From positions 800 to 64,799 of IMG/VR virus record IMGVR_UViG_3300044949_002421: a DNA stretch of 64,000 bases. One strand, 5' to 3'. The DNA is from a virus. Taxonomy: Duplodnaviria > Caudoviricetes. How positions within the stretch are numbered: position 1 is the stretch's first letter; the number at the start of each line of letters is the position of its first letter. Below the pieces are notes generated by a model. The model was given only the letters and a program-made list of their open reading frames with translations, did not search any database and had not been told where the DNA came from. Of the stretch, positions 16,601 to 41,883 are shown one piece after another. The position numbers and the translations under genes are program-made.

Positions 16601-19600
16601 ATCCAAGGGGTCGCGGCTCCCCTAGCGAAAATCCAGAACGCTCGCGGCATCAAGGGGTCCCCGGACCGGATTGCGGCCTATATCGCCAACTATTCAGACA
16701 TGGTGGCAAGCATCTACAGGGAGGCCTCGGAGGCGATGCTCCCCGGGCTGGAAACAAAGCTCACTCCGGACATGAACTTAAACATGATCCGGATTGCCCT
16801 AGACAAAGCCGGAGCCATCTATCCGGACAACTCAAGGCCTCAGGCACCGATATTCCCAGCCCAAAGGGATACGCTTGAAATGGCGGCGAGAACACCAGAG
16901 CTGGATTCATCTCTGGGCGAAGGCAAAGGCAAGGTGGAGATCCGACCGGAAATCAATTACTCGAGAATTCTCAATCTTCTTGGCCCCAAGATGTATGAAA
17001 AGAATCTTGTTGAGGTCGCCGTTAAGGAGCTTTTACAGAACTCGTTTGACGCCGCCCGGGCCGCCGGAGCAACCAACGAAAACCCCGGACAGGTAACGAT
17101 AAACCTAGATTATTCAAGTCGAACAGTCACGGTGAGGGACGACGGAGTTGGCATGACTCCGGAGATCATTCAAAAGGCCTTTTTCACAATTGCGGGAACC
17201 CACAAGGAGCAAAGCGCGGAAAACACATCGGGTGGGCTTGGCCTTGCCAAGATGGCGTTCCTGTACGGATCAGACAGGGTCAGGGTTGTAAGCGTTAGAA
17301 ACGGCATTAAGTCCACGGTTGCCACGGATCGCCAAACCCTCCTAAACCGAGACCCGATCAATGTTGTAACAGAGAAAACATCGGAGCCGTCCGGAACAAT
17401 CGTCGAGGTCGTCATTCCGCAAACAATTGAAGATTCAGAGGGAAATACGAAACAACTATTTTTCCCGCCAGAGCCGGCATTCCTAAGCAAGCCGTTGATT
17501 GGCCCGATTAAGGTAATACTTACCGCCGGGGATCCATCAAGCCCGTACAGAACAAACAAGATTCTAAATCTTGGCATAAACCAGCAGGACTACCAAAAAG
17601 AGACAAGGTTTGGATTTTCTTGGGGCAATATCGATGTCTACATCAACCCGGAAAGGCAGAAATATCCAGCTATTGAGATTCTTTCAGCCGGACTGCATCA
17701 GTTCGGCTTAAGTCGCTACGATGTGTTTGGGTGGCAGGAGGAGGACGTACTTCCGTACAACATAGTTCTCGATGTAAGGCCGTCGGTTAAACCTGAAAAC
17801 GCCGCCTACCCATTCAACAACTCCAGAGAGGGATGGCGTGGCACCATCAAGGAGGATGTAAACGCCATGTATGGATACCTCAGGCGCATGGCAACCGAGC
17901 AAAACCTCCTTGAGGCCAAAGAATCATTTTCAAACTTGGAAAAAATGCCTCAGTTTGACCCCCAGAAGGATCTTACGCCCGGTGAGCTTGCAGACATCGC
18001 GGCCGCCCGGCCCAAGCCGCGCCCCACGGCCCCCATTGAGAAGCCGGAATTTGTCGATTTTTCGGGCGACAATGTGGTTATAAGGTATTCCGAACAATCC
18101 GGGATAAAGCCAAAAGAAATTGCAAAAGAAGAGTACGTCAAAAAGTCGTTTAAGCCGGAAAAAGACATCAATTTCCAATCAGCGGCTCTTGATGTCAGCG
18201 GGATGGATCCTCGGGTACCCCTGTTTCACAACAATACCAACATCGATTTCTCGGCTCAGGCAGACGGAGGTGCGGCCAAGAAGATGTTCGCAAGCCTTGG
18301 CAACGCGCTTTCCGGATTTATGAGGGAGTTCGGAGCTAAGGTTGGGCCCAATGTTAACCCCTACTCCGCCATGGCCTCGACCGGTGCGGATGGGTGGTTT
18401 TCCGGCATCTCCATAGACAAGGAATACAGGGGCTTAAATATGATTAAGCCATTTAAGTCCATCTGGTTTAACCCCGCCGGCTTGTCAGAGGACGCCATGG
18501 TTAGCCCAGAGGCCGCCGCCCTTGAGACAATTCACGTTTTCATCCACGAAATAACCCACGTCAACGCAAGGAATGAGGGCTCCGGGTTCACCTCGGAGCT
18601 CGCAAACAACTATGCAAGAATCCGTGCCTTCGGCGTTGACGACATAGCAACAGAACGGATACTTGCTAGCATATATGCAAGACATTGGAAGGACATCAAT
18701 GACCTCAGAACAAAATACACCAACTTCAGCACAAAGAATAGTGCAAGAGGTTTTCAATCGTCATCGGAATCGCTCGGAACCGGAACAGAGGCAAGCCAAC
18801 CTAATCAGCCTCAAGACAATCCACAGGAATCTGTCGGAACTCAAGAACAGGGACGAGGCGGCAATAGCAGAGTTGGCGCAGAAGATAGCGGAACTGGAGC
18901 AAGCCTAGGCGAGATCATAGCCTCACGCGCCCGGACCGAGCGGGAGGCATTAAAATACCCAAATAGATACGCGCTTTCACTTCAGGCCAGATCCCCTGAC
19001 CTTTTCGAGTCATCTGAAGAGCCGGAAAGCGAGGAGGATGCCGAAACCGGAGCAACCGAAGAGTCGGCCAAGAATGCCTATTTAGTCATACAAGAAATTG
19101 CCCCAATGGAGGGGCTTACCCGCACCGACCAAGGGATGAAGGAGGGCAGAATCCGTCCCGGCGGCAAGATAATCACCTACCTAGTCAACAAATCGGATTC
19201 CAGCGGAATGTCAGTTGCGGATCGGTTCTTTTCTCGTGGTTACGGAGAGGAGCAACTTCGGGAAATTATCTACGACAAGATGGTCGACGTTCTTTCGAAA
19301 TCGGCCAGCGGGAAACAGCTTGCCAAAGACTTTTTGGCGACCCGAGTAAACGCAAGCTCAAGCGACTTGGCCCTCTACAGCGAAGCCAGAAAGGCCTTTG
19401 TTCAGAAGATCATCAGAAAACTTTTGGTCGGCGGAAACAAAAACCCATCCATTGAGGATGTTGTTGCCGAGATGAGCGACAACGACCGCGCCCTTGGATT
19501 TGAAATGAGGCACATTGTCGGAGCGCGAGAGGAAATACGCCTTAACAACTTCCTAATGCGCTCGGTGGAAAATCACATTCGAAAGCTCGTTGGAAACTAC

Positions 19601-22600
19601 GATCAAGAGGGAAGGTCTCTAATCGTGACATCGGCAGAGGCAAGGGAAAGAAGGCCCACCGAAATCTCTGACGAGGACACAGAATCCATGGTCGAAAGAA
19701 AGTTTGTCAATCCGGATACCGGGAACGAGCTAGACCAGAGAGCAGACGAGTCCGCAAACCTTCAGGAGACACTCCTCGCCGAGTCAGGGACGGCAGCCGA
19801 GGTCATGGCCAGATACCTTGGGCCAGACAGCCTTCGGATTATTGAGATGAAGGTTCGAGGAATGACCTTTCAGGCCATAGCAGACGAAGAGGGGTTCACG
19901 GGGAACCGGCCTGACAATATAGCAAGATCCAGATTTGAAGAGGCCTACTCCAAGGTTCTAAATGCCATAGATGGCATCTATTCGGTAAAGAAGTCGCTAG
20001 AAGCAAGAGATTATCTTGGCGATGAGGAAAAAACAAAACTTAATGATTTTGACAAATTTCTTTCTGGGAGACTTGGACGCGGGGAAACATTTGAGTCAAT
20101 CGCCTCGGCAAGGGCGGAGGCACAAAAGGCAATCAAAGACTCCGGAACTGGGGCTGGCCAGCTTGAGCTTGGGCTTGACGCCAGAACTCCTGACCTGCCC
20201 CCTCCCCGCCTTCTGGCAAAGTATTTTGAGCTTCGGGACAAGATTAAGTCCGGCGAATTCGAACCAAGCGATATGGACATGTTTGAGCGAATTGAGTCTA
20301 TGGCCATCAAGTTTGGCTGGCCAATTCCAGTCCAGCTGAGGCTTTTCGACATTCCAAATATTGTAAGGAGGGCTTCTGATCAGAGGAGCCAGCAGTCAGC
20401 GGGGCTTCAGGACGAGTTTGATTTTGGCCCTACTGAGCTTTTGTCGAGAACCCCTGACCTGATGAGTGCCGACGAGCTTCAGGAAGCTCTTGATGGTGAC
20501 TGGATAACAAATGACGAGATTCAGGCTGCACTCAGGAATGATTCTGCCGGCGACAAGCGCGGGTTGGTCGATTACGGGAAGGGATCCGAGGCAAGCGCGG
20601 TCATCAGGGCCGGAAGAGAAGCCACCCCTAACCCTGAGCCATACACCAACGAAGAGGCCATGGCGAAGGCAGGAACAATCAGCCGAGGCCAAATATTAGG
20701 CCGGCTGGCCGGGCTTGAGGCCGGCGAGGTGTTGTCCAAAGACGAGGATTACGCGGCCCAGCGTGAACTCAACCAGCTTGCTCTTGAGGCATTCGCATCC
20801 GAGGACGAGAAGCAGATCAACGATTTCCTATATTTACAGAGGCAGTATGACAAATCCGGAACAGAGGCGGCCAGATCCTTGCAGGGTAGGAAGCCATTCA
20901 ATCCTGACGACAGGAATAGGAAGGCCGTCTATACCCCCCTCACCGCCATCGACAGGCGCGACCTTCAAAAAGAAGCCATTAACCTGACGGCAAAGCTAAA
21001 GGCAGACCTTTCCGTAGCCGAAGCATCCCTAAACGAGCAAAAGGCTCGGGCAAGGGCTCAATTTGGGCCTAATTTGCCTCAAGAATGGGCTGATTATATT
21101 TCCCAGCAAGAGGGCGCAATCGCCCAAATGAAGGCTGACATTGAGGATGGCGGGGTGCGAGTTGCCGAAAGACAGATTTTAGACAGGAATGCAAAGAAAG
21201 CCGACGAGGCCTTGGGCAAGGTCGGCAAGAGCCTCAAGGGGCTCGAAGAAGACAGCATGAAGAAGAAGCTGCGGACCGGCCAGACAGCCGGGCAGATTCT
21301 TGAGTCCATCAAAGACACCCAGCTTCGGGATGCAGTCCAATTATACCTTTTGGGCTATTCCGTTAAAGATATTGAAGCTCAGACTGGAATCAAAAACGGC
21401 AGAAACAAAATTAAGCTGGCTATCCTAAAGGGGCTACGACCAGAGGCAGATCGCCGGTTTGTCAGAGTCCTTGAGCAAGTTAAGGCCGGCAAAATGAGCA
21501 AAAAGCAGCTCATGATGGCCCTGAAAAAACACTCTGAGGGCCAAAGCCTGCTTGCCAGAGCTCCCGAGGATCCCAACCAAGACAACTTCACCGTGGATGA
21601 GGCAAGAGAGATGCTTTACGACGCCTTCGGTCTAAACACGGAAAACCTAGAAAACAAAGAGAGCGATCCCTTGTTTGGCTACGACGACCCACACGCCGCC
21701 AACAAAATTTCCAGCATTATTTCCGAGGGCATCAATGGCCCTGCCTCATGGGGCAAAATAGCCTCCGATGTCTTTTCCTCCTTCATTTTCACGGGGGCCC
21801 CATCTCTCGCCGCCAACGTGGCAACAATCCCCTTCGCCAAGCTGGCCATACCAATCCACCTATTTGTCGAGGCGATGACCACGTACTACAGGGCCGGAAT
21901 TCGCGGCATCAAAATGACCGAAACGGTTTACGACAAAGTTCCTGTTTTCGATGAGGAGGGCAACCCAGCCGGGACGCGGGTAGCTCCTAAAGAAGTGGAA
22001 ATCGGTGCGCCATATCAAACCCTTGGTCAGGCAATAAAGGGCGGGTTTTCAGAAGCCTTCCGTGCCTACAGGGAGCTTGGCTGGCTTGGGTCAGATGGGG
22101 AGGCCCTGAAAAAGGCCGTGACTGCCTTTAACACCGAGACAATCCAGTTCGGCGTTGAGCAGGGCATTGTCAATGTTTCGGATGTCCGCCTTCGCGAATC
22201 TGGGGTTCTTGATAAATCAATCCCCGGCTTGGCCGGCAAGGCCGTCAGGCTCGGGGTAAACATCTTGCTCGCCGGCGACGAATACAACAAAACGATGCGA
22301 GCCAAGGCCTATGTCGGCGCATTCGCTTACCGGCTTGCCAAGGCAAAGGGGCTTGAGGGCGATGCGGTCAATGAATACGTAGAAAGCGAGTTTGCAGACA
22401 AGACATCCCTGTCTTGGAGACTTGCTGTCGACCGCACTCTTCGCGACACCTTTACCCAGCGTCTTTCCATACGTGGGGACGAGGAGCTCTTAACTCCACA
22501 ACCGCTTTGGGAGAAGGCCAAGGGGCTCACTCGCTCGCTCCGTGACTATCAGTCGACGGGCGAGCTTCTTGGGCTCGCCCCAGAGGCATTGACGATGATC

Positions 22601-23974
22601 AATATGGAGCTTGGCCGTGCCGCCAGCCGGGTTGCCCGTGGGTCCAAAATCAAGGTTTTTGGAAGAACTCTGAGCCCAACGGAATTGGCCCTCAGATTCG
22701 CCCAAAGCTTCTTAATTTTGATTAGAAGCCCATACAACATCGCCCGCGCTTCAGCGGCATACTCGCCGTTTGCCATGGCCAATGTTGCCCTAAGGGCGTC
22801 CCGTGGTCGCGTTGCCAACACGATGAATGTTTTTGACTTCAATACTCTATCCCAAAGGCATGCGGAAGCACTTCTGGGGATTACGGGGCTCGTATCCCTT
22901 TTTGCCTTTGCCGAGGGGGACGATGATGATGACGACAAGACTGTGCTCATAACCGGGTCTGGAGGTGTCAGAACAAAATATGGCAACCCATCTACTTCCG
23001 TCATTATTCGGACTCCACTTGGAAACTATGTGATCCCATACGGGAGGTACGAGCCCGTTAGTGCGCTCGCCTATTTGATTGATGCGGCAAGGGCTACGAA
23101 GCAAGTTACAAATGAGAGACAGCCCGCATCCGAGGCCGTTGGGAACTACGTTCAGGAGTTTCTCAGGTATCCATTCACAAAGACTTTTGCAAAGGCGGTT
23201 CGTGATTTTGGGAAGCTGACTGGTTTCGATAATCCGTCCGACACCGGCAAATACAAGGGCTACGATGTCTTGCGCGAAAGAATTTCCTCCATAGCCATCC
23301 CAAACTTCTTTAAGAGGCTATTTGAGCCCGGCGCAGTCACCTTTGGTGATGAGTCTTGGGATGTTGACAGAATGACCGGCTGGGGGCCGACAGAAATGGC
23401 CGGATGGGTTAACTCGTTTTTGCCCGGCCTCCCTGCCCTAACTGGAGAGGAAGACATCTCCCTGCCGCCAAGATATAGTGCCGACCTAAAGGTAAGAGAC
23501 AGGGAGATTACCGGAGCAGAGGTTCTTGCAAAGAATGTCGGGATTCCGGAGCGCGCGGCTAGACTTATGGGCGGATTAAGCAAGGGTCTGGTTCCGGACG
23601 GAATTGCCTATGTGGAATCGAAGAAAGGGAAACTCGATAAATTTGTGTCTGCCTACAACGCAAGATTCCCACAAACAAGATATCAGCCAAAGGCCCCCAA
23701 TCGCTTTATTCAGCTAAAGGATAAAGACGGAATCTCGACAAACGAAGAGATGACCCCGTCAGAATACAAAACCATGCTGGCCCTAGCCTCAAAATATGCC
23801 GGCGATAGAATTGATAATGTCCTTACCGACGAAAGAATTTCAAACCCAACCGAAGCCACAAGAAAACTTGTAGACTCCATCCGAGAGGATGCCGTAAGCC
23901 GTGCAAGACAAGCAGTTCGGAATGCGCGACGCGCAAAAGAGAAAAGGGCTGTTGAATCGGCCGGCGTTAGGTAG
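10688..23974 (+). CDS. Giant polyvalent (DarB/ejection-type) virion protein, 4428 aa
   Basis: N-terminal coiled coils and hydrophobic block; ddrB-like ParB region (LQLRDR..GPATV..IIAGHGR); GHKL ATPase (KELLQNSFDA, DDGVGM, GGLGLAK, GTIV); HEITH zincin; two sigma70-r4-like HTHs; LPD38-like C-terminus. Confidence 0.85.
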   Translation: MGLDSILGGSPRNKGEAYEGPVAGGIMSGLRGMKSDERSAEGEFEQEQKEQNKAFEGGKKEVFEGAGISTYTDPQEGLQPKVSLDPNTGINRLERPEAEFSVQRRLPTGELVDDTLKTDKYGGAKDKTAKKRSLIVGKEASSDPRTPKSGIYEEFEDPRQPDLKNYKFIGGYEELSNSQDLGVRDVARKGLLEQNQKASSLLSSELQTQIDEIDLKERELRDMEAASKTTGELPIFEGKQLQPEDSAKTRLGLQQQITELKKQRVALKQIEKQGVAMDLLRQAKERALREGRNPSDDPVVKSLQETYRTIGRETPEEAFMAKPDQVAVAGGKGTLMIEGATPDVPEQQKSSFFKTAGNDLRSKLKIEQESGNVNVEKAKLSIKAQEEYNQASKEILPASIRKQTIKQLVDISNRELEEATSRWGEMSQQEQAEFNARFEGRRQAIQRLGDEYKALEPSANAASERVGTIFETTREAEKSLNESFQKKTEEINREANAFARAQSERASAGIRDEYLKKQANFNSMGQRFGQLAQAGDDAGIVKLAQDYVASGGNKQDADRMISDYGKYKKSKDGQGWLANSIASFMRAPLIASQESAAGLFKIAASGLRAKAAGKDDVMDAIGPSGWLAKVLPSLESNPALAPVRVASDMAGQAILDKIYQTKAAKPFVEYIADWMDGAASSAKGNVEFLKKGFYVDPQFEASTAGNFLKGIGDYAWTALPYIALRSKGIPVGLATNVGRLYTEARDDQEQTYQAKLAEFKAGKIKDEPKPMDESDAHIAALRYAGLGGFIDTVSDAIGMRLAFGLLKGAAAVTPKTVGSFFRQTAIQIGEKKVPMWLTPPLAGATEFGAEGSQKLILNALAEKYENWDPNRPWNEGAFEEAMMGFMLGFALPVIGGAGGAIYKKTVVIPSMLMENDGLDQVSVQYQNLSVDVPMGGWRQYAETVTPSEASPQFELNARQPFSIQNELRGTGVTWAIAVGQRIDSEISATNSQIQQASDPAQGKILRLKRNDLLLQRYNLIQAMQGDAALRFSLQNEIGSLPEQPLAKGDASLQQAALAAAKHSIGAPVTKAELKIKVGGTQLFQQTEDGKTIVSPSFMRFLSGKAPTLESVVANNQNLLDSAPPTTLAEQPPVISEVRPQEEIRAERDQAARQQLEAEARPQPATAPEQQPTPMGQTWAVPYTKNGKIKGTLTIQADNENKAKQLALQQLKEEGAKSVSFGDVRLAEQQDLVGQEPAALLAGPDQQRKRVGGAVNPYMRRLEGKNTKERYINARRRFERFAGEARSIFKASIGIQESTEAKKPFSARLADDGTITLVVNPKLFSAFDAKNPEFNNRAYSEEFRHMADFIASNLKANESGRSDYQQFYKEERSRLYQRIFETSKQDPRVLNALMASASLYFGDQGPPLKEGGYTAEEFMDWAEGSGISDVTLMGELLQQLGTRRKTEAAVEVATAMNKGGGSITASLMEVIRDYLKSILRAINGLRRAITETNPEVAADLDSLIQSINDVLNMQASPQEEAQSGIDTATQRRLRDMGLTPAEIAQMNPDQARERLQGQVQVSAPAQTQGLKSTNTRKTEYGVVRYDLDVVPLSELNNMAGTELQLRDRTGDEGYAAKVAVIARDWDKDEAASRDTGELDTGPATVIAAESNPYGVNQAGFDIIAGHGRTEGYSSAPDDRVADYVAKLKAKYPDLAAKIDAIIASGQRPMLVRKIDWQNTYNPSLGNEKQHLRRIARDANLGTGNENDAEVALADALEISDDKDLSLPQEVIVNGQPSLLNQDGTPAGNNDEILAKWLRIFSNDSDRRYYQNGVYTPEFEARIRRAILGYVFAPTNEKGEMALTKQTFDTINMLVSPTIARNSGIATLQQGLEKASPSLFRVKQDFQKYESLLGQDAKDANPIVAIQKSLSDYLAYRAEREQAARKSGDNRAIAMVGLAEYEDYINQSGLFGSISPQQAMVLVPIVRDGRLDGIQGVAAPLAKIQNARGIKGSPDRIAAYIANYSDMVASIYREASEAMLPGLETKLTPDMNLNMIRIALDKAGAIYPDNSRPQAPIFPAQRDTLEMAARTPELDSSLGEGKGKVEIRPEINYSRILNLLGPKMYEKNLVEVAVKELLQNSFDAARAAGATNENPGQVTINLDYSSRTVTVRDDGVGMTPEIIQKAFFTIAGTHKEQSAENTSGGLGLAKMAFLYGSDRVRVVSVRNGIKSTVATDRQTLLNRDPINVVTEKTSEPSGTIVEVVIPQTIEDSEGNTKQLFFPPEPAFLSKPLIGPIKVILTAGDPSSPYRTNKILNLGINQQDYQKETRFGFSWGNIDVYINPERQKYPAIEILSAGLHQFGLSRYDVFGWQEEDVLPYNIVLDVRPSVKPENAAYPFNNSREGWRGTIKEDVNAMYGYLRRMATEQNLLEAKESFSNLEKMPQFDPQKDLTPGELADIAAARPKPRPTAPIEKPEFVDFSGDNVVIRYSEQSGIKPKEIAKEEYVKKSFKPEKDINFQSAALDVSGMDPRVPLFHNNTNIDFSAQADGGAAKKMFASLGNALSGFMREFGAKVGPNVNPYSAMASTGADGWFSGISIDKEYRGLNMIKPFKSIWFNPAGLSEDAMVSPEAAALETIHVFIHEITHVNARNEGSGFTSELANNYARIRAFGVDDIATERILASIYARHWKDINDLRTKYTNFSTKNSARGFQSSSESLGTGTEASQPNQPQDNPQESVGTQEQGRGGNSRVGAEDSGTGASLGEIIASRARTEREALKYPNRYALSLQARSPDLFESSEEPESEEDAETGATEESAKNAYLVIQEIAPMEGLTRTDQGMKEGRIRPGGKIITYLVNKSDSSGMSVADRFFSRGYGEEQLREIIYDKMVDVLSKSASGKQLAKDFLATRVNASSSDLALYSEARKAFVQKIIRKLLVGGNKNPSIEDVVAEMSDNDRALGFEMRHIVGAREEIRLNNFLMRSVENHIRKLVGNYDQEGRSLIVTSAEARERRPTEISDEDTESMVERKFVNPDTGNELDQRADESANLQETLLAESGTAAEVMARYLGPDSLRIIEMKVRGMTFQAIADEEGFTGNRPDNIARSRFEEAYSKVLNAIDGIYSVKKSLEARDYLGDEEKTKLNDFDKFLSGRLGRGETFESIASARAEAQKAIKDSGTGAGQLELGLDARTPDLPPPRLLAKYFELRDKIKSGEFEPSDMDMFERIESMAIKFGWPIPVQLRLFDIPNIVRRASDQRSQQSAGLQDEFDFGPTELLSRTPDLMSADELQEALDGDWITNDEIQAALRNDSAGDKRGLVDYGKGSEASAVIRAGREATPNPEPYTNEEAMAKAGTISRGQILGRLAGLEAGEVLSKDEDYAAQRELNQLALEAFASEDEKQINDFLYLQRQYDKSGTEAARSLQGRKPFNPDDRNRKAVYTPLTAIDRRDLQKEAINLTAKLKADLSVAEASLNEQKARARAQFGPNLPQEWADYISQQEGAIAQMKADIEDGGVRVAERQILDRNAKKADEALGKVGKSLKGLEEDSMKKKLRTGQTAGQILESIKDTQLRDAVQLYLLGYSVKDIEAQTGIKNGRNKIKLAILKGLRPEADRRFVRVLEQVKAGKMSKKQLMMALKKHSEGQSLLARAPEDPNQDNFTVDEAREMLYDAFGLNTENLENKESDPLFGYDDPHAANKISSIISEGINGPASWGKIASDVFSSFIFTGAPSLAANVATIPFAKLAIPIHLFVEAMTTYYRAGIRGIKMTETVYDKVPVFDEEGNPAGTRVAPKEVEIGAPYQTLGQAIKGGFSEAFRAYRELGWLGSDGEALKKAVTAFNTETIQFGVEQGIVNVSDVRLRESGVLDKSIPGLAGKAVRLGVNILLAGDEYNKTMRAKAYVGAFAYRLAKAKGLEGDAVNEYVESEFADKTSLSWRLAVDRTLRDTFTQRLSIRGDEELLTPQPLWEKAKGLTRSLRDYQSTGELLGLAPEALTMINMELGRAASRVARGSKIKVFGRTLSPTELALRFAQSFLILIRSPYNIARASAAYSPFAMANVALRASRGRVANTMNVFDFNTLSQRHAEALLGITGLVSLFAFAEGDDDDDDKTVLITGSGGVRTKYGNPSTSVIIRTPLGNYVIPYGRYEPVSALAYLIDAARATKQVTNERQPASEAVGNYVQEFLRYPFTKTFAKAVRDFGKLTGFDNPSDTGKYKGYDVLRERISSIAIPNFFKRLFEPGAVTFGDESWDVDRMTGWGPTEMAGWVNSFLPGLPALTGEEDISLPPRYSADLKVRDREITGAEVLAKNVGIPERAARLMGGLSKGLVPDGIAYVESKKGKLDKFVSAYNARFPQTRYQPKAPNRFIQLKDKDGISTNEEMTPSEYKTMLALASKYAGDRIDNVLTDERISNPTEATRKLVDSIREDAVSRARQAVRNARRAKEKRAVESAGVR

Positions 23975-34495: not shown

Positions 34496-34888
34496 ATGAG
34501 AGCCATTTGCATCATTCTGGGAGGATCCGCACATCTCCCGTATCTACGAATTCAGGACGCCAAGGGCGCCAACAGAACATTTGTATACTCGCCAATTCAC
34601 CGCGCACACCTATGGGACCGAGGCGAGCTTGGCCCAGAAGATTCCGCAGACTTGGAGTCCATGCTTTCGGTCCCAAACAAAATCTACATTCCGATTGTAA
34701 GGCTCCTAAAAGACCCGATCTCAGAAACAGAAACAAGAGGATCGCACCTTCCTGTTGTTGAGGCCTATATGACGGCTGAGAGGGTGTTTTCTCGCGATCC
34801 ATCCGACTTCAAGGACGAGGACAGAAACAATATCGACGACAGGGCTGAAAAGCCTCGCAAGCGTGGTCGCCCACGTAAAAACCCATGA
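34496..34888 (+). CDS. Hypothetical protein after capsid
   Basis: C-terminal KRGRPRK AT-hook-like tail, typical of post-MCP genes. Confidence 0.65.
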   Translation: MRAICIILGGSAHLPYLRIQDAKGANRTFVYSPIHRAHLWDRGELGPEDSADLESMLSVPNKIYIPIVRLLKDPISETETRGSHLPVVEAYMTAERVFSRDPSDFKDEDRNNIDDRAEKPRKRGRPRKNP

Positions 34889-35553
34889 AAGTTAACGAAG
34901 CAATCGACTCCATGTACGAGGTGTTCGGAATCCCAAACAACGCCTCTGCCCCGGACATCATGCGCCGGAGAATTTTTAATGACCTCAATTCTGCCATGCA
35001 GCTTCTTTGGACAAAGGGACACAGGCTCTTGGACTACTACACGAGGGGCGAAGAGACGATTACGGTAACGGCAAACCAAAAGGAAACCCTTCTTAGCGAC
35101 AACATTCAGTCGGTGCTCGGCCCTGTGCGTCGTGCAGACGGCATGTTGCTTCGCCCAATCAGGACAAGAGGCGAGTATGACAACTATGCATCAATTTATG
35201 CGGGAAGCATCACAACCCTTGCGGGTGCTCCGCCTCAGGCCTATTTCATCGATCAAAATCGCGGATCGGCTCCCGATGCAACTTCCATCTCAATTTTCGT
35301 TGTGCCTGTCCCGACTGTTAACACGACTCTTACCCTTGAGGTTTCGCTCAGGGCTCCGGCATTTACGACGGCCGATTACACAAATCAGACCCAAATCCCC
35401 ATCCCTCACAATTATGCAGAAACGCTTCTGCTACCGATTGCTAGATACCTTGTTTGCTCGTCCCTCTTCTTTGCCGACAAGTCCAAGCAAAGGGAGCCTC
35501 TTCTGAAGGCGGAATACGACAGAGCGCTCCAGACCCTATCGGAGGCCGCATGA
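34885..35553 (+). CDS. Head-tail adaptor protein
   Basis: N-terminal helices, G.PxAY, VPVP, IPHNY..LL pattern; position after MCP. Confidence 0.7.
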   Translation: MKVNEAIDSMYEVFGIPNNASAPDIMRRRIFNDLNSAMQLLWTKGHRLLDYYTRGEETITVTANQKETLLSDNIQSVLGPVRRADGMLLRPIRTRGEYDNYASIYAGSITTLAGAPPQAYFIDQNRGSAPDATSISIFVVPVPTVNTTLTLEVSLRAPAFTTADYTNQTQIPIPHNYAETLLLPIARYLVCSSLFFADKSKQREPLLKAEYDRALQTLSEAA

Positions 35554-36419
35554 CGACACTTCAGCTCGCACAGAGGGTTTTATCCTCAACCGCCCTGCCC
35601 CAAGACCCGACCAGTATAACGGCAGACCTAGCCTCCGTGGTGGTTGGGGCCATGAATTCCGGGGTTTCCCGCTATCACCTAAACGCCCCCAGCGGAAGGA
35701 AAGTAACTCCGGTAACCGCCTACATTAAGCCGCCGAGGAGCTATAGCTCTGTTTCACTAACGCAGGGTTCTTATGACTTTACCGGAATACCGGATTTGGC
35801 CCCAGATGACCTCGGGGACACCCTAAGGATCGGTGATAGGAGCCATCCGCTTGCGCTTGGATCGAAACTTCGCGACCCATGGGCTGGGCAAACTGGAATT
35901 TACAACGCCGTTCTATTCGACGATGTCGTCCCGATTTATGCACCCGTCCGCAGAATCGAGGGATCAGTAATTTACGACGAAAGGTACAGGCTATCCTACC
36001 TATCAAGCCTTCCCCTTGAGGAAGACGAGGTCCTTATCCCAAGGAGATCGAATATTCCCCAATATTACACCATCGAGCATCTGGGGGACGTTGTTGGGGG
36101 CCCAGTCAGAGCGTTTGTTAGGGTCTACCCGTTCCCAACCCAGCCAGCCACCATAAGGTTTTCCGCCAGCTTGGAGCCACAGCAGTTTTCAATCCAGTCA
36201 ATCTCCACTCCTTCCGATGTTTATATCGGAGGATTTGATATAGAGGCGTTTGTTATCCCGCTAATTTTAGCCGAGCTTGCACAGACTCAGGTCTGGAGCC
36301 CCGCGCTAGATAGAGGCATGGCGATTACCAAGGGGAAAGAAATTGAGGCCTACCTAAGGACTTATCATGAGCCAACCGGGTCAAATATCAGCAAGGTTCT
36401 GACCCCAGCAGGATACTAA
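35550..36419 (+). CDS. Second adaptor-like protein (start revised from 35454)
   Basis: ATGA-coupled start MTTLQLAQR; PQYY..RVYPFP motifs similar to the preceding gene. Confidence 0.65.
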   Translation: MTTLQLAQRVLSSTALPQDPTSITADLASVVVGAMNSGVSRYHLNAPSGRKVTPVTAYIKPPRSYSSVSLTQGSYDFTGIPDLAPDDLGDTLRIGDRSHPLALGSKLRDPWAGQTGIYNAVLFDDVVPIYAPVRRIEGSVIYDERYRLSYLSSLPLEEDEVLIPRRSNIPQYYTIEHLGDVVGGPVRAFVRVYPFPTQPATIRFSASLEPQQFSIQSISTPSDVYIGGFDIEAFVIPLILAELAQTQVWSPALDRGMAITKGKEIEAYLRTYHEPTGSNISKVLTPAGY

Positions 36420-36420
36420 T

Positions 36421-37206
36421 ATGGCAGTCATATCACCAATTCTGCTTACATCGAGCTTGGTTACGGATGTGCTGACAAAAATCAGGCGTGGCGTTGCCTT
36501 GGCCCGCATGGACAACACGGCGGACTTTGCGGCGGGAGTTATGTGCGATCTTCCGGAAAAGATTGATTTTGAACTTAATCTTGTATCAAAGCATCAATTC
36601 TTAACCAGAGAGGTAACAGTTGCCCAAAGCGAGAGCTCGATTGACAGCGACACCACCCATGAGCACGAGGCATCCCTGAGGAGGGAGTCCGAGCTTAGCC
36701 TTGGAACCAAGGTCCGCAGATCGGCATCGTTGGAGGTTGGCCTATCCTCGTCAACATCCGCAACCCGGGAATCCGAGGTACAGCAGGACACATCCAACCA
36801 GTCTGGAATCCAAGCAAGCAGAGACGGGTCGTCTGGAAATGACCGCGATTCAGACGGAACAGTTCAGGCTCAGGTAGAGTCGGACGCAGAAGCATCTGCA
36901 GGCGGGACCACATCATCTTCGAATGGAGTTGAGGCAGAGTCAGAAAGCAACAGCTCAGGCGGGAGTGGTACTGAAATGGATTTAACCAGCGAATCAGGAG
37001 CCGGCGGCGAAGCCGAAAGCAGCAACGAAACAAGAAGTGGAACCGGAACAACGCGCAACACTCAGTCAGATAATGAAAGTGATACTGGAAGCAAAAGCGA
37101 CAACTCCGTGGAGGCAGAATGTTCAGACAAGTGCCAGTTGATGGCAATTAACAGGAAGTATTGGCGCCTCGATGAGGAAACAGGAGCCATACAGCAAGCG
37201 TCATGA
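36421..37206 (+). CDS. Acidic S/E/G-rich protein A1 with Trypco-like N-terminal half-domain
   Basis: LTKIRRGVALAR..DLPEKIDFELNLV followed by ~170 aa of low-complexity sequence. Confidence 0.75.
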   Translation: MAVISPILLTSSLVTDVLTKIRRGVALARMDNTADFAAGVMCDLPEKIDFELNLVSKHQFLTREVTVAQSESSIDSDTTHEHEASLRRESELSLGTKVRRSASLEVGLSSSTSATRESEVQQDTSNQSGIQASRDGSSGNDRDSDGTVQAQVESDAEASAGGTTSSSNGVEAESESNSSGGSGTEMDLTSESGAGGEAESSNETRSGTGTTRNTQSDNESDTGSKSDNSVEAECSDKCQLMAINRKYWRLDEETGAIQQAS

Positions 37207-37847
37207 GTTACACCCTAGCAGATTACCTAAATCAACAGACCGGAAATTCCACAAATTCTGGATCTGGAAGTTCGTCTAGCTCGGGGTCCACATCAAGCTC
37301 CGGCTCAACCAGCTCATCTACCTCTGGGTCAACGTCGTCATCAAGCTCCGGCTCAACCTCAAGAAGTTCCAGCACTTCGAATTCTTCTTCAAGAAGCGTC
37401 AGTTCAAGCACAAGCAACTCCTCCTCAACATCAAGAAGTGTCAGCAAGTCAAACTCCTCGTCCGGGTCTTCCTCGACATCAAGAAGCGACTCATCCTCCG
37501 GCAGCAGATCCACAAGCTCAAGCGGATCAAGCTCAAAATCAACAAGCACAAGCTCTTCGGGCTCAAGGTCAACAAGCTCAAGCACAAGCTCTAGCTCAAG
37601 CAAGTCATCCTCTGGCTCCAGATCCACCAGCTCTAGCACCAGCTCAAGCACAAGCTCCTCTTCTAGCGGTTCGTCCTCGGGAAGCAGGTCCGGATCAACA
37701 AGCGCATCTTCGTCTCGCTCCACAAGCACATCAAGATCGACAAGTGGATCAACCACAAGAACTGAAACCGAGAAGGACGATGTCGGATGCGTTGTTCGTT
37801 TCAGCGTTCCAATTGTCGTTCAGTTCCCCGGGGACGTTCTCCCATGA
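37203..37847 (+). CDS. Serine-alternating protein B, (S-X)83
   Basis: Residues 19-184 have Ser at every second position; C-terminal CVVRFSVPIVV; ATGA-coupled on both sides. Confidence 0.8.
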   Translation: MSYTLADYLNQQTGNSTNSGSGSSSSSGSTSSSGSTSSSTSGSTSSSSSGSTSRSSSTSNSSSRSVSSSTSNSSSTSRSVSKSNSSSGSSSTSRSDSSSGSRSTSSSGSSSKSTSTSSSGSRSTSSSTSSSSSKSSSGSRSTSSSTSSSTSSSSSGSSSGSRSGSTSASSSRSTSTSRSTSGSTTRTETEKDDVGCVVRFSVPIVVQFPGDVLP

Positions 37848-38119
37848 ACATTGATATGGAGATTTCCGACATAAGAGACCGACTTCAGACGCAGGGAGAA
37901 AGGCTTGCGAGAATGGAGCAGAGGCAAATACAGATCCACGACTGGCTCCATGTCCATGTTCAAAAGCTTGACGATTTTGAAATTAGGATTGCGGAATTGG
38001 AAAGAGAGTCGCACAGCCTAAGGACGAAACTTTGGCTCGTTGGCGTAATCGCAGGCGCAGTTGTCTCTGCGGTATGGCAGGTCATTTCAGTTAAGGTTGG
38101 AATGTTTTTTGGCAAATGA
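37844..38119 (+). CDS. Coiled-coil protein with C-terminal TM helix (XhlA/holin-like)
   Basis: RLARME..LERE coiled coil, then LWLVGVIAGAVVSAVW. Confidence 0.65.
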   Translation: MNIDMEISDIRDRLQTQGERLARMEQRQIQIHDWLHVHVQKLDDFEIRIAELERESHSLRTKLWLVGVIAGAVVSAVWQVISVKVGMFFGK

Positions 38120-38937
38120 ACATTGTCCCACTTGCAGAGGTTGACGGATTTATTAGGACCGCCCTTACGGAGGTAAGGAAAGGCGTTGCCACGGCAAGGA
38201 ACAACAATCAGACCAATCCACTCAATGGGATTATGGTCGATCTTCCTGAAAAAATTGATTTTGAGATGATGGTTGTAACGGCATATCAGTCCCTCCTTAA
38301 ATCGTCATCGGCAACAGAGTCGGTTGGAAGCGGAGATAGGTTGTCGGTGGTATCTGGAGATATCGACTCTTCTTCCCTCTCCGAGACGTCCGGAGACTCA
38401 GAGGGCGAAATTGGGTCCTCTTTAGATGTTGGTCGCTCAACAGAGGCAGAGGCAAGCGGTTCGCTAGATTCCTCTCAGGAGCAATCAGTCGAAGCATCAG
38501 GAGAGACAAGCGGAGAGCTGTCCTCTTCCGCTGATAACGGAACCAGCAGGCAATCGTCATCAGAGGCCAACACAAAATCAGGCTCAGGATCCCAATCCGA
38601 CAGAGAATCAAAGAGAGACTCTGAGAATGGGGCGGGCGGAGGAACAGAGCGTGACTCAAAGAGATCCTCAGGTGGCGGCGGAAGCCAAGAAACATACCTC
38701 TCATCAGGGACCGGATCAGTTGGCGGATTAGAGTCTTCAAGCGACTCAAGGACTGGGACTGGAACAAAGAGGTCGACAAGGACGGAGACAACGACAGGGA
38801 AAAACAACACAAGGCAAAGCGGACTGGTTTTTGAGGAAAACTCTAGATTTTCGAGAACATTTGACCAAGCGACAGGAAGATGGGGGCAGCAAGTGTTCTC
38901 CCAAGCACCAAAACCATGCAATCTCAAGTGCTCCTAA
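38116..38937 (+). CDS. S/E/G-rich protein A2, paralog of 36421
   Basis: ALTEVRKGVATAR..DLPEKIDFEMMVV; similar low-complexity arm and R.F/W..D..TG tail. Confidence 0.75.
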   Translation: MNIVPLAEVDGFIRTALTEVRKGVATARNNNQTNPLNGIMVDLPEKIDFEMMVVTAYQSLLKSSSATESVGSGDRLSVVSGDIDSSSLSETSGDSEGEIGSSLDVGRSTEAEASGSLDSSQEQSVEASGETSGELSSSADNGTSRQSSSEANTKSGSGSQSDRESKRDSENGAGGGTERDSKRSSGGGGSQETYLSSGTGSVGGLESSSDSRTGTGTKRSTRTETTTGKNNTRQSGLVFEENSRFSRTFDQATGRWGQQVFSQAPKPCNLKCS

Positions 38938-39308
38938 TACTTGTCGCAATCGTTTTTTCAGGGTGCTCTTCGGTCTCCCGTCGGTCAGCCCCGGATTTCT
39001 CCGTTGCAGAAACTAGGCTTGAGCAGGCCTACCAGACCGCTGATCCCGCGACTAGAAAGCACTTGGACGAAGCCAGAAGGCAGCTGGCATCCGCCAAGGA
39101 GCTTTGCCTTACAAATACCGAGCAATTAGAGCAGGCCGTTAAAGAGCGAAACGATGCCCTTTCCAAGGCTTCCTACTGGAAGGAGAAGCAAAGAAAGGCC
39201 CTAAAGGAGCTATGGATATGGCGCGGAGCCCTTATTGTGGCTGTTTTGTTTTCCCTTAGAGGTCCCCTGCTCTGGATTGCCAGAAAGTTCGTGGGGATAC
39301 CTTGGTGA
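38916..39308 (+). CDS. Lipoprotein with C-terminal TM helix, candidate unimolecular spanin
   Basis: Lipobox VFSG-C, coiled coil, C-terminal hydrophobic helix; next to holin and endolysin. Confidence 0.65.
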   Translation: MQSQVLLILVAIVFSGCSSVSRRSAPDFSVAETRLEQAYQTADPATRKHLDEARRQLASAKELCLTNTEQLEQAVKERNDALSKASYWKEKQRKALKELWIWRGALIVAVLFSLRGPLLWIARKFVGIPW

Positions 39309-39652
39309 AGAGATTTTTCTCAACTCTGCAAGGGTTTTGGGCGTTCCTAATTGCCGGCATAGTCTTTTGGTTTTCGGGCCCAATTTTCCAACAGGCAGAC
39401 CCAACCGCCGGCGTTTGGGACAGAGGGTCAATTCACGGGCTTGCCATTGGGGCCGCAACCTATTTCTTGGCCGTATGGCTTGCTTGGCTGGCATTTCAAA
39501 TCGAGTGGCCGTCTCTGGACAATCACATCGACGAGAACCGATGGGCTCAGGACTGGAGGGCGTCCAGCCCGCAGACAAGGCTTTGGTACTCAATCGCTGT
39601 ATGGGGAGTTCTATTTCTGGGAGCAATTCTATGCCTTCTTTCATGGAGATAG
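39302..39652 (+). CDS. Putative holin (3 TM helices)
   Basis: Three hydrophobic helices, upstream of endolysin. Confidence 0.6.
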   Translation: MVKRFFSTLQGFWAFLIAGIVFWFSGPIFQQADPTAGVWDRGSIHGLAIGAATYFLAVWLAWLAFQIEWPSLDNHIDENRWAQDWRASSPQTRLWYSIAVWGVLFLGAILCLLSWR

Positions 39653-39656
39653 CCAA

Positions 39657-40169
39657 ATGCGTTGTTTTATTGCCTTGGCTCTTCTTTCGTTGCCTTTCAT
39701 CGCGAGCGGAGGACCAAGAGAGGACGTTGTCTGGGTCGCCTCAACCCTACTGGAGACAAAAGAAGAAGGCGGTCCAAACACCGGGCCCGTGGTGGACGAG
39801 ATCCTTGCTTCCGTGGGCCTTGCTCCCGGTCACCCTTGGTGCGCTGCCTTCAACTACTATGTCTTCAGAGGGGCCGGCCTTTCGGACCGAGTGCCGAGAA
39901 CGGGTTGGTCTCCGGCATGGCTATCAGGAGAAAGAAAGCCGGCCGAAAAGGCAGAGCGTGGTGACGTCTTCGGAATTTATTTTAGCAAACTCCGCAGGAT
40001 CGGGCACACCGGGATCATAGAGGACCCCAAGCCAAGGTACTGCATAACCATAGAGGGAAACACAAATGGAGCAGGATCAAGAGACGGAGACGGAGTCTAC
40101 AGAAAGCGCCGCTCAAACCAAACGATCGTCGTTAAAGACTGGATCGAAGCCAACACTTCGAGAAATTAA
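39657..40169 (+). CDS. CHAP-family endolysin with signal peptide (start revised)
   Basis: PWCAAF, GHTGI, TIEGNT motifs; N-terminal MRCFIALALLSLPFIASG. Confidence 0.85.
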   Translation: MRCFIALALLSLPFIASGGPREDVVWVASTLLETKEEGGPNTGPVVDEILASVGLAPGHPWCAAFNYYVFRGAGLSDRVPRTGWSPAWLSGERKPAEKAERGDVFGIYFSKLRRIGHTGIIEDPKPRYCITIEGNTNGAGSRDGDGVYRKRRSNQTIVVKDWIEANTSRN

Positions 40170-40506: not shown

Positions 40507-40807
40507 AGACTACGAGGCCGACGGCCATTCGATTTGGGCCTGCGCTTATGTGGACGGACGACGTAAGTACGAAAGCGGGCACGAAGAACATAAATCAAAG
40601 TTTTGGACTGCGGGAGCTCTTTGGTACGCAAATAACCTAAGAAGCGAGGCATTGGACGCAGTCGCCTACTCGCACCACCTGACTATATGCCTAAACAGGA
40701 TATTGAATGCGGCCATGAAGCTTGAGGCCGGAGAAATCAACGGGATTGAGGGTGGAGCTGAAATTCGAAACATCTTGGAAAATCTTCCAATCACGGAGGA
40801 TCAATGA
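40487..40807 (+). CDS. Hypothetical protein, all-alpha NTP-pyrophosphatase-like
   Basis: KYxxG..EALDAVAY pattern. Confidence 0.5.
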   Translation: MKNGATKDYEADGHSIWACAYVDGRRKYESGHEEHKSKFWTAGALWYANNLRSEALDAVAYSHHLTICLNRILNAAMKLEAGEINGIEGGAEIRNILENLPITEDQ

Positions 40808-41136
40808 GCGAAGATAGGTTTAATGTCGATATAGCCGCCGAAATGTATGGGTCACCGCCGGGTGGCCCCGGGCAGGCGATTGTTCCCGGGGTTGTAAACG
40901 AGAACATTGTCGGCAAACCGCCTCCTGCAATTGACATGGCGAAAAACCTCTACAGGGACACTATCGCTTGGGCTCAGTCAGGATTCGAGGTGTCGGAAAA
41001 GGATGAGATAGACAGGCGGCTTGAGATTTGTAACTTATGCGAGTTTTTTAAGGACGGTCGATGCACTATCTGTGGATGCTTTATGGCTCTGAAGGCAAGG
41101 CTGGCAACCGGAAAATGCCCGAAAGGCAAATGGTAG
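40804..41136 (+). CDS. Zn-binding protein (DUF6171-like)
   Basis: RRLEICxxC..RCxxCGCFM..K..CPxGKW. Confidence 0.75.
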   Translation: MSEDRFNVDIAAEMYGSPPGGPGQAIVPGVVNENIVGKPPPAIDMAKNLYRDTIAWAQSGFEVSEKDEIDRRLEICNLCEFFKDGRCTICGCFMALKARLATGKCPKGKW

Positions 41137-41883
41137 ATGTCCAAGCCAATCAAATTCGTGGCCGCCGGCGATGTTCATGGAAACGAACAGGACAAGTCAT
41201 CCGTAAAGGCCCTGCTATCGTTCATGGCCGAGTATAAGCCAGAGCTGGTTGTCATGATTGGCGACCTATGGGACTTCAAGGCAATCCGAAAGGGGGCGGG
41301 AGACGAGGATCAGGCGTCCTCGCTTGAGGAGGACTGGCAAGCCGGAGAGGAGTTTTTGAGGAAGTTCTTTTCGTTTGGCGACGAAAGGATTTTCTTGAGG
41401 GGCAACCACGACGAAAGAATTTTTGATCTGGCCCAAAACTCGAGTTCTGGAATTGCCAGAGACTACGCAAACGACGGCATCGAGAGCATTGAGTCTTTGA
41501 TGAAAGAGCTTCGGGCCAGAATGTTCGCCTACGACTCGGTTGGCGGGGTCTACGGATGTGGGACGCTTAAGTTTGTTCATGGATACGGACATGCCATGCA
41601 TGCCGCCAAGCAACATGCGGATGCTTACGGGAACGTGATGTTTGGTCACACCCACGCAATTGACTACTTCAAGTCCGTGTCAATCGACTCAAGGGAGGCT
41701 TGGAACATCGGATGTATGTCAAACCTTGCCCCGTCCTACAATAGAAACAACATGCGTAGGATGCGCTGGCAACATGGGTTTGCCTACGGACTTATCCACC
41801 TTGAGGACAAAAGCCACGATGTCTTCCTTGCCAGACAGAGAAAGGGCAAGTTCACCATTCCAACAGGAATTAAATCATTCTAA
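41137..41883 (+). CDS. Calcineurin-like metallophosphoesterase
   Basis: GDVH, GDLWD, GNHD, HG, GHTH motifs. Confidence 0.9.
   Translation: MSKPIKFVAAGDVHGNEQDKSSVKALLSFMAEYKPELVVMIGDLWDFKAIRKGAGDEDQASSLEEDWQAGEEFLRKFFSFGDERIFLRGNHDERIFDLAQNSSSGIARDYANDGIESIESLMKELRARMFAYDSVGGVYGCGTLKFVHGYGHAMHAAKQHADAYGNVMFGHTHAIDYFKSVSIDSREAWNIGCMSNLAPSYNRNNMRRMRWQHGFAYGLIHLEDKSHDVFLARQRKGKFTIPTGIKSF

Follow-up and report, generated by a model that had tools for sequence, protein, structure and literature searches.

The DNA analysed here, called the window throughout, is a stretch of 64,000 nucleotides (nt) covering positions 800 to 64,799 of the viral record IMGVR_UViG_3300044949_002421. At 36421-38937 it carries four overlapping genes for proteins that we designate A1, B, ccTM and A2; these and the other features described below lie on the plus strand unless stated otherwise. 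The open reading frames (ORFs) for A1 (36421-37206, 261 amino acids (aa)), B (37203-37847, 214 aa) and A2 (38116-38937, 273 aa) are located where a preliminary description of the sequence had placed them, and the ATGA overlap reported there for A1 and B was found again. Overlaps of the same four nucleotides also join B to the ccTM gene (37844-38119) and the ccTM gene to A2. A1 and A2 are indeed paralogs (BLASTP E 3e-21, 32% identity across 236 columns) with L..R.GVA.AR...G.M.DLPEKIDFE in common. The A and B proteins have neither a signal peptide nor a transmembrane (TM) segment.

Each of the three proteins follows the same plan of a small end, a long arm and a second small end, as judged from motifs that are conserved at both termini. 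The preliminary description had overlooked the C-terminal motifs of A1 and A2 (R.[YF]..[FL][DE].[DE]TG plus CxxxC) and the conserved N-terminal motif of B. In A1, the N-domain (residues 1-62, 36421-36606) consists of an amphipathic helix followed by a DLPEKIDFELNLV strand and is conserved across 56 protein clusters. It is followed by an acidic arm rich in S, T, G, E and D (residues 63-227, 165 aa, 36607-37101), in which D/E alternate with a period of two (z 7.5), and by a C-terminal motif (37102-37206 with the stop codon) that reads ECSDKC...SRKYWRLDEETG...QAS and is conserved among A1 orthologues. A2 repeats this layout with a paralogous N-domain (residues 1-61, 38116-38298), an acidic arm (residues 62-235, 174 aa, 38299-38820; D/E period-2 z 7.1) and the C-terminal motif ..SRFSRTFDQATGRWG...PCNLKCS (38821-38937 with the stop codon), where 23 sequences share N242, G254 and C272 without exception. 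B starts with the motif MSYTLADYLNQQTGNS.. (37203-37256), the start of which lies in the overlap with the A1 stop and in which M1, D7 and N10 are invariant among 16 orthologues. After a net basic arm (37257-37754), B ends with an amphipathic closing strand in the motif ..TETEKDDVGCVVRFSVPIVVQFPGDVLP (37755-37847 with the stop codon), which contains 12 invariant columns in the same number of orthologues; the very end of the protein reads ...GCVVRFSVPIVVQFPGDVLP, and related endings, ..CRISFSIPILGRVP and ..GFTVTFKLKISDFL, are present in distant lineages.

Cysteines occur at the ends of all three proteins, as CSDKC before the C-terminal motif of A1 (37102-37203), as C.LKC at the terminus of A2 (38821-38934) and as one invariant residue in the closing strand of B. 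The B proteins of a second clade of relatives (clade 2) have an additional cysteine near the N-terminus. Judging from these positions, the cysteines of A1, A2 and B could link both ends by disulfide or metal. A1 (36421-37203) also weakly matched the FomA porin family of NCBIfam over residues 31-126 (E 1.7e-4; 20.9 bits, cut-off 125), a match that we take to reflect amphipathic beta-strand composition and not homology. The fourth protein, ccTM, is a coiled-coil protein of 91 aa with a C-terminal TM helix. It gave weak XhlA-like matches (phrog_5225, 2e-5; phrog_1193 'hemolysin', 2.4e-3; PF10779, 0.31), and its length remains constant at 83-91 aa among relatives despite their varying arms. In clade 2 its gene sits upstream of p289, the adaptor-like gene described below, instead.

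The arm of B is an unbroken (Ser-X)83 run that occupies exactly the nucleotides initially reported for it. The X positions are filled by 26 Ser, 22 Thr, 15 Gly, 10 Arg, 3 Asn, 3 Lys, 2 Val, 1 Asp and 1 Ala. For the fixed serines all six codons are used (AGC 26, TCA 21, TCC 12, TCT 11, TCG 8, AGT 5), and because all six occupy fixed positions the run is no simple DNA repeat. The program TRF reported only degenerate repeats in B, and this finding, the six codons and a high synonymous turnover led us to reject a plain DNA repeat as the source of the periodicity. An antisense ORF of 174 aa within B (37232-37756, minus strand), which is rich in L, E, D and V and also open in relatives, was dismissed as a mirror artefact of the periodic serine codons.

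Codons were compared between the window and the related contig L004, where the genes have equal lengths. Among the 83 fixed serine codons of the B arm, 35 were identical, 47 differed synonymously and a single one non-synonymously; for the 83 X positions the corresponding numbers were 39, 34 and 10. The fixed serines of B are thus under strong purifying selection. The A1 arm (165 codons) gave 45 identical, 46 synonymous and 74 non-synonymous positions, and the A2 arm (174 codons) 46, 54 and 74, with not a single insertion or deletion in either despite the many replacements, which affect 45% of the residues in the A1 arm. The N-domains of A1 (62 codons: 23 identical, 37 synonymous, 2 non-synonymous) and A2 (61 codons: 33, 26 and 2, respectively) are highly conserved.

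Period and charge were followed through 20 distinct A1/B/A2 triples from related viral contigs, which were also used for all statistics on length. The B arms showed S/T alternation with a period of two in all 20 triples (z 2.3-12.6), and D/E alternation reached z>=3 in 17 of the 20 A1 arms and in 16 of the 20 A2 arms. On account of this two-residue periodicity, all three arms look like long beta-strands with one face of small residues and one charged face. The window arms carry net charges of -20 (A1), about -12 to -11 (A2) and +12 (B). The contrast between acidic A arms and a basic B arm that had been noted for the window holds in most cassettes, A1 being net acidic in 19 of 20, A2 in 18 of 20 and B net basic in 18 of 20.

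The arms of the three proteins are matched in length, and the covariation of arm lengths among orthologues, which had been named beforehand as a test, proved very strong, at a ratio of about 1:1:1. The lengths of A1/B/A2 in aa include 196/145/207, 207/160/220, 220/171/236, 238/187/248, 257/210/270, 261/214/273, 267/220/279 and 271/225/286, and in clade 2 165/96/160 and 234/164/234. Across the 20 triples, Pearson correlation coefficients were 0.975 for A1-B and 0.996 for A2-B. When 19 independent contrasts were formed on a tree of the conserved ends, r amounted to 0.995, 0.998 and 0.995 with slopes of 0.97 and 1.00, and in 10,000 permutations the observed value was never attained. The differences at individual nodes illustrate how closely the three proteins move together: -6/-6/-6, -32/-32/-33, 51.7/51.7/51.3, 64.3/64.3/64.0 and 70/68/72.5. 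Three contigs whose module is cut by contig ends (L008, L018 and L023) were excluded, and L027 (A1 246, B 176, A2 246 after trimming of a false 5' extension), which fits clade 2, does not enter the statistics. In a tree built from the neighbouring adaptor genes, very different arm-length classes stand side by side, so arm length must change, or cassettes must be exchanged, often. Since the arm lengths of three proteins covary residue for residue through many independent changes, pairing of the arms side by side is strongly indicated.

The same relation was found in lineages with only two genes, one A and one B, that follow the same two adaptor-like genes; these were scanned for with an alignment of three small homologs. 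The pairs A110/B79, A109/B80 and A169/B137 (numbers are lengths in aa) differ by +59/+58, and in A169/B137 the arms consist of matched hexapeptide repeats of opposite charge, (TDTSTG)n in A and (SSSKSG)n in B. A further pair, A157/B120, is present on contig L225, where homology of the A protein is supported by hhalign (Prob 89.7%, E 1.8e-6). L224 and L226 may carry a still more distant pair, to judge from a weak match of the A protein (Prob 7.3%). In the small two-gene lineage, fibre genes come after the A/B pair. The gene following B on contig L057 (4934-6142, +) encodes collagen-like G-X-Y repeats and then a long region of G/A/S/T-rich repeats and is probably a tail fibre gene.

Positions of insertions and deletions bear on the relative orientation of the chains. 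The preliminary description had suggested antiparallel pairing, with the A N-domains meeting the C-terminal strand of B, and this fits one clean concerted set of indels. The cassettes of L007 and L005 are 82-95% identical, and between them A1, A2 and B have each gained six residues, at position 124 in A1, 124 in A2 and 123 in B; measured from the A N-domains the site lies 61-62 residues away, and measured from the C-terminal motif of B it lies 61 residues away. The indels in the comparisons L012/L013, L020/L024 and L028/L010 are roughly consistent with an antiparallel register. A three-chain structure prediction for the ends that would meet, A1(1-80), A2(1-80) and B(165-214), gave a median interface score (ipSAE) of 0.41 (runs 0.42, 0.33 and 0.41; best control 0.03). 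Among 80 solved complexes, 58 attain the mark applied, as do 2 among 110 mismatches; at values of <=0.60, only 7 of the 80 but both mismatches do so. Contacts agreed between runs by at least 57%, and the predicted local distance difference test (pLDDT) of the partners was at least 48. This prediction lends weak support to a contact between the A N-domains and the C-terminal strand of B.

The module is conserved as a unit. Of 26 related viral loci, 23 have A1, B and A2 in that order and the remaining three are truncated by contig ends, and all 23 contigs that were found independently by a search with the C-terminal motif of B also carry A. Conservation in 23 of 26 loci and purifying selection on the serines of B make the module more than a product of chance. 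A profile search with the 66-residue N-domain retrieved 56 protein clusters with E up to 1e-3; for 40 of these, E was 1e-10 or lower. Most members are 185-318 aa long and have the same three-part plan, while eleven clusters of 98-162 aa have shorter S/T-rich tails. None of the 56 clusters contains a Pfam family, and none bears a B-type ending in a search without length filter, i.e., no fused A-B form was seen. Scans of A1, B and A2 against Pfam, PHROGs, NCBIfam and PADLOC returned compositional matches only, the A N-domain profile had no match among Protein Data Bank (PDB) sequences and usable neighbours of A1 were not found in the ESM Atlas. A tblastn search of 50,697 GenBank phage records with A1 and the capsid protein gave no match. 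The A-family pattern recovered 360 stretches but 0 relatives from 185,579 prokaryote species (one genome each), and there is therefore no clue to a prophage or a host from this side.

The IMG/VR record that contains the window is a virus genome of 64.8 kb judged to be complete, with assigned genes for the large terminase, an SU10-type portal, a Phage_capsid_3 capsid protein and a tailspike-like protein. The virus is a podovirus, i.e., a short-tailed phage, and a tail tube and a tape measure protein are therefore expected to be missing. The earlier remark that neither is recognisable simply describes a podovirus. The A/B genes do follow directly upon head-tail adaptors, as had been stated. The protein p222 (34885-35553; AlphaFold2 model with pLDDT 82) is a head-to-tail adaptor of T7 gp11-like fold: Foldseek retrieved 22 PDB matches at E<=1e-3, all of them portal-tail or adaptor chains, with TMq up to 0.61, among them GP4 (8jov_G, 2e-7), VP1, A4, Pa223, SU10 (7z47_A/B), N4 (9lc0_H) and T7 gp11 (7box_M). 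Its adaptor-like paralog p289 (35550-36419; model pLDDT 80) lies immediately 5' of A1, with TAAtATG at the junction. The two families are weak paralogs that cross-match in phmmer (E 5e-5 to 8e-4), and p289 matched the same adaptor chains less well, with 2 PDB matches at E<=1e-3, 8jov_G at 1.4e-5 and TMq of 0.28-0.43. By structure comparison, the adaptor fold is thus found in p222 and more weakly in p289. p289 is the constant neighbour of the A/B genes, directly adjoining them in four of the five lineages seen. Tandem adaptor-like paralogs (222 and 289 aa in the window, 34885-36419, +) precede the A/B genes in every lineage seen, and the GP4 and SU10 entries each contribute two adaptor-like chains to the Foldseek matches. 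Profiles of p222 and p289 and the 1091-aa and 540-aa proteins of the window yielded nothing useful against PDB sequences.

Downstream of A2 lies a lysis cassette (38916-40169), context outside the proposed assembly, with matches to the Rz-like spanin phrog_456 (2.5e-4), the endolysin phrog_9589 (8e-15) and CHAP (2.2e-4). With starts taken from orthologues, it comprises genes for a unimolecular spanin (u-spanin)-like lipoprotein with a C-terminal TM helix (38916-39308), for a TM protein (39302-39652) and for a CHAP endolysin that is secreted (39657-40169). The spanin-like protein has an N-terminal lipobox (..FSGCSS) and a coiled coil before the TM helix, and its gene overlaps the end of A2 by 22 nt. 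A lipoprotein of this unimolecular type implies a Gram-negative host.

A single complex of A1, B and A2 (or of A and B), with the arms running alongside one another in register, is well supported, and it is likely that the arms are beta-strands and that B runs antiparallel to A. Beyond this, we tentatively favour the possibility that A1/B/A2 constitute one hetero-oligomeric, in-register beta assembly of the podovirus tail, possibly a polar tube. Beta conformation, tube closure, stoichiometry, virion location and function are what we infer in the following model. Each protein would contribute conserved small ends and a long polar arm of period two, the three arms being held equal in length. With B antiparallel to A1 and A2, the A N-domains would sit at the C-terminal strand of B and the A C-terminal motifs at the N-terminal motif of B. 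At the base, the amphipathic helix and strand of the A N-domains would thereby meet a hydrophobic strand, and the two sets of motifs would meet at the tip. One face of the resulting sheet would be formed by small residues (the serines of B and S/T/A/G of A), the other by charges, acidic from A and basic from B. Several such units would join to give a long polar beta-tube filled with water or, if not a tube, a rod, which may be mounted near the adaptor or nozzle as an extension of the tail for genome delivery. Closure of the sheet on itself appears most plausible because a sheet without a hydrophobic core needs to be stabilised, and a tube is therefore proposed. This proposal of a polar DNA-delivery tube draws on the lack of a hydrophobic core, the Ser-only face, the adjoining adaptors and the need of a podovirus for a channel that spans the envelope.

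Several observations weigh against this model. A three-strand unit at 1:1:1 cannot close as an all-antiparallel barrel. The charge pattern has exceptions (A1 of L020 with +3, A2 of L025 with +11, B of L025 with -1 and B of L026 with 0), and parallel and antiparallel arrangements could not be told apart by cross-correlating the acidic residues of the A arms with the basic residues of the B arm. The indels between L006 and L009 misfit an antiparallel register, and in low-complexity arms the placement of any indel, including those cited above, is ambiguous by about six residues. The fold of the partners in the predicted complex of the ends is uncertain (pLDDT 48-50), and single-chain models predict disordered arms (A1 in the ESM Atlas, pLDDT 0.27). 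The shortest arms have about 50 residues and the longest about 180, a range of about 3.5-fold, at genome sizes of 64.1-64.9 kb and constant spanin length, and because the arms vary while these sizes hold, arm length is not tuned to one envelope width. As to the genomic setting, no nozzle gene was recognised by sequence in the window phage, which leaves the tail architecture incomplete, a 661-aa gene intervenes between pair and adaptors in L225, and lysis genes adjoin the pair in clade 1, clade 2 and L225.

The main rival of a tube is a solid fibre or needle, built from the same in-register complex as a beta ribbon of two or three chains or a beta-helical rod, through which no DNA passes and which would serve in spacing, host contact or plugging. 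The evidence from length coupling, periodicity and register applies to it equally, three chains fit a rod better than an all-antiparallel barrel, and its absolute length would be free to vary, as in a free-standing appendage. The A arms evolve fast at constant length, like exposed parts that contact the host, and the pair of the small lineage adjoins fibre genes, one of them collagen-like. However, a ribbon without hydrophobic residues on either face would need closure or stacking for stability, the strict Ser-only face of B favours tight packing or a lumen over exposure to solvent, and family library scans detected a receptor-binding domain at neither end. We consider such a fibre rather doubtful on balance. 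The periodicity and the selection pattern also bear on whether the arms are strands at all. Were they disordered tethers or entropic bristles, with A and B binding through their ends only, equal lengths could arise from the pinning of both ends. Composition typical of disorder, the low pLDDT of the A1 model in the ESM Atlas and the poor conservation of the A arm sequences agree with this idea, yet pinned loops need no residue-exact match such as that expressed in slopes of 0.97-1.00 and steps of 6/6/6 and 32/32/33. Nor would tethers account for period-2 patterns in all three arms, for the near-absolute maintenance of 83 alternating serines despite 57% synonymous change or for a concerted insertion at matched distances from one end, and we judge them improbable.

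The neighbourhood of the genes suggests yet another function, namely lysis or disruption of the envelope together with ccTM and the spanin, for example by a late periplasm-spanning or cell-wall-active device outside the virion. Genes for spanin, TM protein and endolysin do adjoin in clade 1, clade 2 and L225, and in clade 1 an XhlA-like ccTM gene is ATGA-coupled within the trio. In clade 2, though, the ccTM gene is positioned elsewhere; the pair of the small lineage is followed by fibre genes, not lysis genes, and the constant neighbour is the adaptor-like p289, directly adjoining in four of five lineages. The lack of signal peptides and TM segments in A and B and the polarity of the arms on both faces likewise speak against a lysis module, to which we attach little probability.

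A different origin for the module was considered on the basis of its resemblance to Pepco (Trypco1/2) proteins, pore effectors that are activated by proteases in bacterial defence systems and that, according to a preprint (10.1101/2025.11.14.688446), form barrels of 9-10 subunits resistant to detergent and sodium dodecyl sulfate (SDS), with an amphipathic helix at the base. The layout that the preliminary description had given for Trypco domains is accurate: natural Trypco2 domains consist of a helix, a '.FEVG.IE.EF' strand, a polar hairpin and 'THR...TL.P'. Homology, for which it had suggested a profile comparison of the rejoined halves of A1 and B, is not supported. Neither the complete sequences of A1, A2 and B nor their ends matched any Pfam family, even with E relaxed to 10. 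A six-frame search of the 64.8-kb record with PF19631 (cut-off 24.2 bits) returned 0 matches at E<=10; the same model found 8 domains in four of five actinomycete genomes as a positive control. In hhalign comparisons with 12 natural Trypco2 domains, the window-type N-domain reached Prob 0.5%, a broad N-domain profile Prob 1.1% and the C-terminal end of B E 0.22. The joined halves scored 12.1, compared with 11.4 for the reversed sequence and a mean of 10.4 and a maximum of 17.7 for 30 shuffles, and hence no better than these controls, an outcome that the preliminary description had named beforehand as refuting and that counts here against the homology. Short-armed A relatives gave a marginal alignment of 34 columns over helix and first strand (score 20.3), which was equalled by 2 of 100 shuffles. 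Because homology is undetectable, the module cannot be filed as a member of Pepco/Trypco2.

What the two have in common is small proteins in which an amphipathic helix at the N-terminus and an amphipathic strand are followed by a hairpin region of polar residues and by a closing strand. As to differences, in Pepco/Trypco2 the unit is on one chain and not on two or three, its hairpin has about 25 aa compared with about 50-180 aa in the phage arms, and its outer face is described as hydrophobic in the preprint, whereas the phage arms are polar on both faces. No single chain of about 80-120 aa with a whole helix-hairpin-strand unit was found among the A-family clusters; the N-terminal half is on A and the closing strand on B. 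The phage genes differ in their tail/lysis gene neighbourhood, and scans of the neighbours (adaptors, ccTM, spanin, endolysin and fibres) detected no protease family or STAND partner; Pepco/Trypco2 genes lie beside that of a trypsin-like or caspase-like protease with a STAND/Avs sensor. A true split and stretched homolog, deployed by the phage as a pre-assembled beta-barrel pore toxin, could be argued for from the order of the elements, with a closing strand ending near a proline, from the SDS-resistant barrels that the preprint describes and from the marginal alignment of the short-armed relatives. Set against the silence of Pfam, the N-domain probabilities, the shuffle maximum above the score of the joined halves, the lack of protease or STAND partners nearby and of the hydrophobic outer face ascribed to Pepco, it is highly improbable. 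By analogy, the A/B module may nevertheless work like a stretched, split Pepco.

Among known systems, the DNA conduits of tail-less and short-tailed phages, i.e., the H-protein tube of phiX174, the ejectosomes of T7 (gp14-16) and P22 (gp7/16/20) and the pore-forming loops of phi29 gp9, are comparable in that a short-tailed phage needs an envelope-spanning channel and the A/B genes lie in the structural module near an adaptor. These conduits are helical or parts of larger folded proteins, and we know of no phage ejection conduit in which several chains contribute low-complexity arms of matched length. Searches of PHROG, Pfam, NCBIfam and PDB sequences linked A and B to none of the described ejection-protein families. 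Long (Ser-X)n dipeptide runs are shared with the Ser-Asp adhesins (ClfA, SdrC/D), and A1 and B gave weak compositional matches to ClfA/Sdr repeat regions (E 5.5e-4 to 0.22; 9-18 bits, cut-offs 999-2500). Serine-rich repeat proteins (SRRPs) are likewise stalks, and the Ser-rich stalks of Gram-positive bacteria are glycosylated. The Ser-Asp adhesins, however, are single secreted wall-anchored chains without a length-matched partner; A and B contain no signal peptide, ligand-binding domain or wall anchor, and the A N-domain is of a cytoplasmic type. In heterotrimeric collagens, coiled-coil fibres and tape measure proteins, chain length is selected to set or fit a physical length. Collagens and coiled coils differ in their periods of three or seven and in composition and show no homology to A/B, and the length of a tape measure protein tracks that of the tail, while the arm lengths of A/B track two other proteins. 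The rope-like nozzle protein of phage A1002 resembles the arms in being an extended polypeptide of about 300 angstrom along a podovirus tail, next to adaptor and nozzle. It is a single chain within the nozzle protein that bears fibre dimers and has no length-matched low-complexity multi-chain arm, and was set aside as not comparable. Open-access papers and bioRxiv yielded no description of a phage system with length-matched multi-chain arms, and A1, B and A2 are recognised by none of the family libraries nor by the structure database.

Carried to its full extent, the assembly that we favour would correspond to the phiX174 H-tube, but in beta-sheet form: in-register antiparallel arms would close into a water-filled beta-nanotube that carries DNA across the envelope in uncultured podoviruses, its length being given by the number of dipeptide units and free to evolve as long as all chains change together, and its base either resembling the Pepco barrel by convergence or sharing a very distant ancestry with it. 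This complete version is unlikely. Arms forming a tube or rod would represent a new building principle for virus appendages and a natural, length-programmable beta-sheet nanostructure. They would also offer a concrete candidate for the way in which a group of uncultured podoviruses, with unrecognised nozzle and ejection proteins, bridge the envelope. The natural short-armed pairs, with an A of 110 aa and a B of 79 aa, bring in vitro testing within reach.

Two further regions of the window deserve mention. Upstream, a single ORF of 4428 aa (10688-23974, +) is flanked by the 540-aa gene and the portal gene. Its product, in which a ddrB-ParB-like domain occupies residues 1583-1713 and a GHKL-type HATPase domain residues 2108-2231, is a giant 'polyvalent'-type protein that is possibly packaged and injected. 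Downstream of the lysis cassette, at 40804-41883 (+), a 110-aa protein with paired cysteines (C..C ... C..C) precedes a 248-aa protein with metallophosphatase-like GD/GNHD motifs, and both are kept in relatives.

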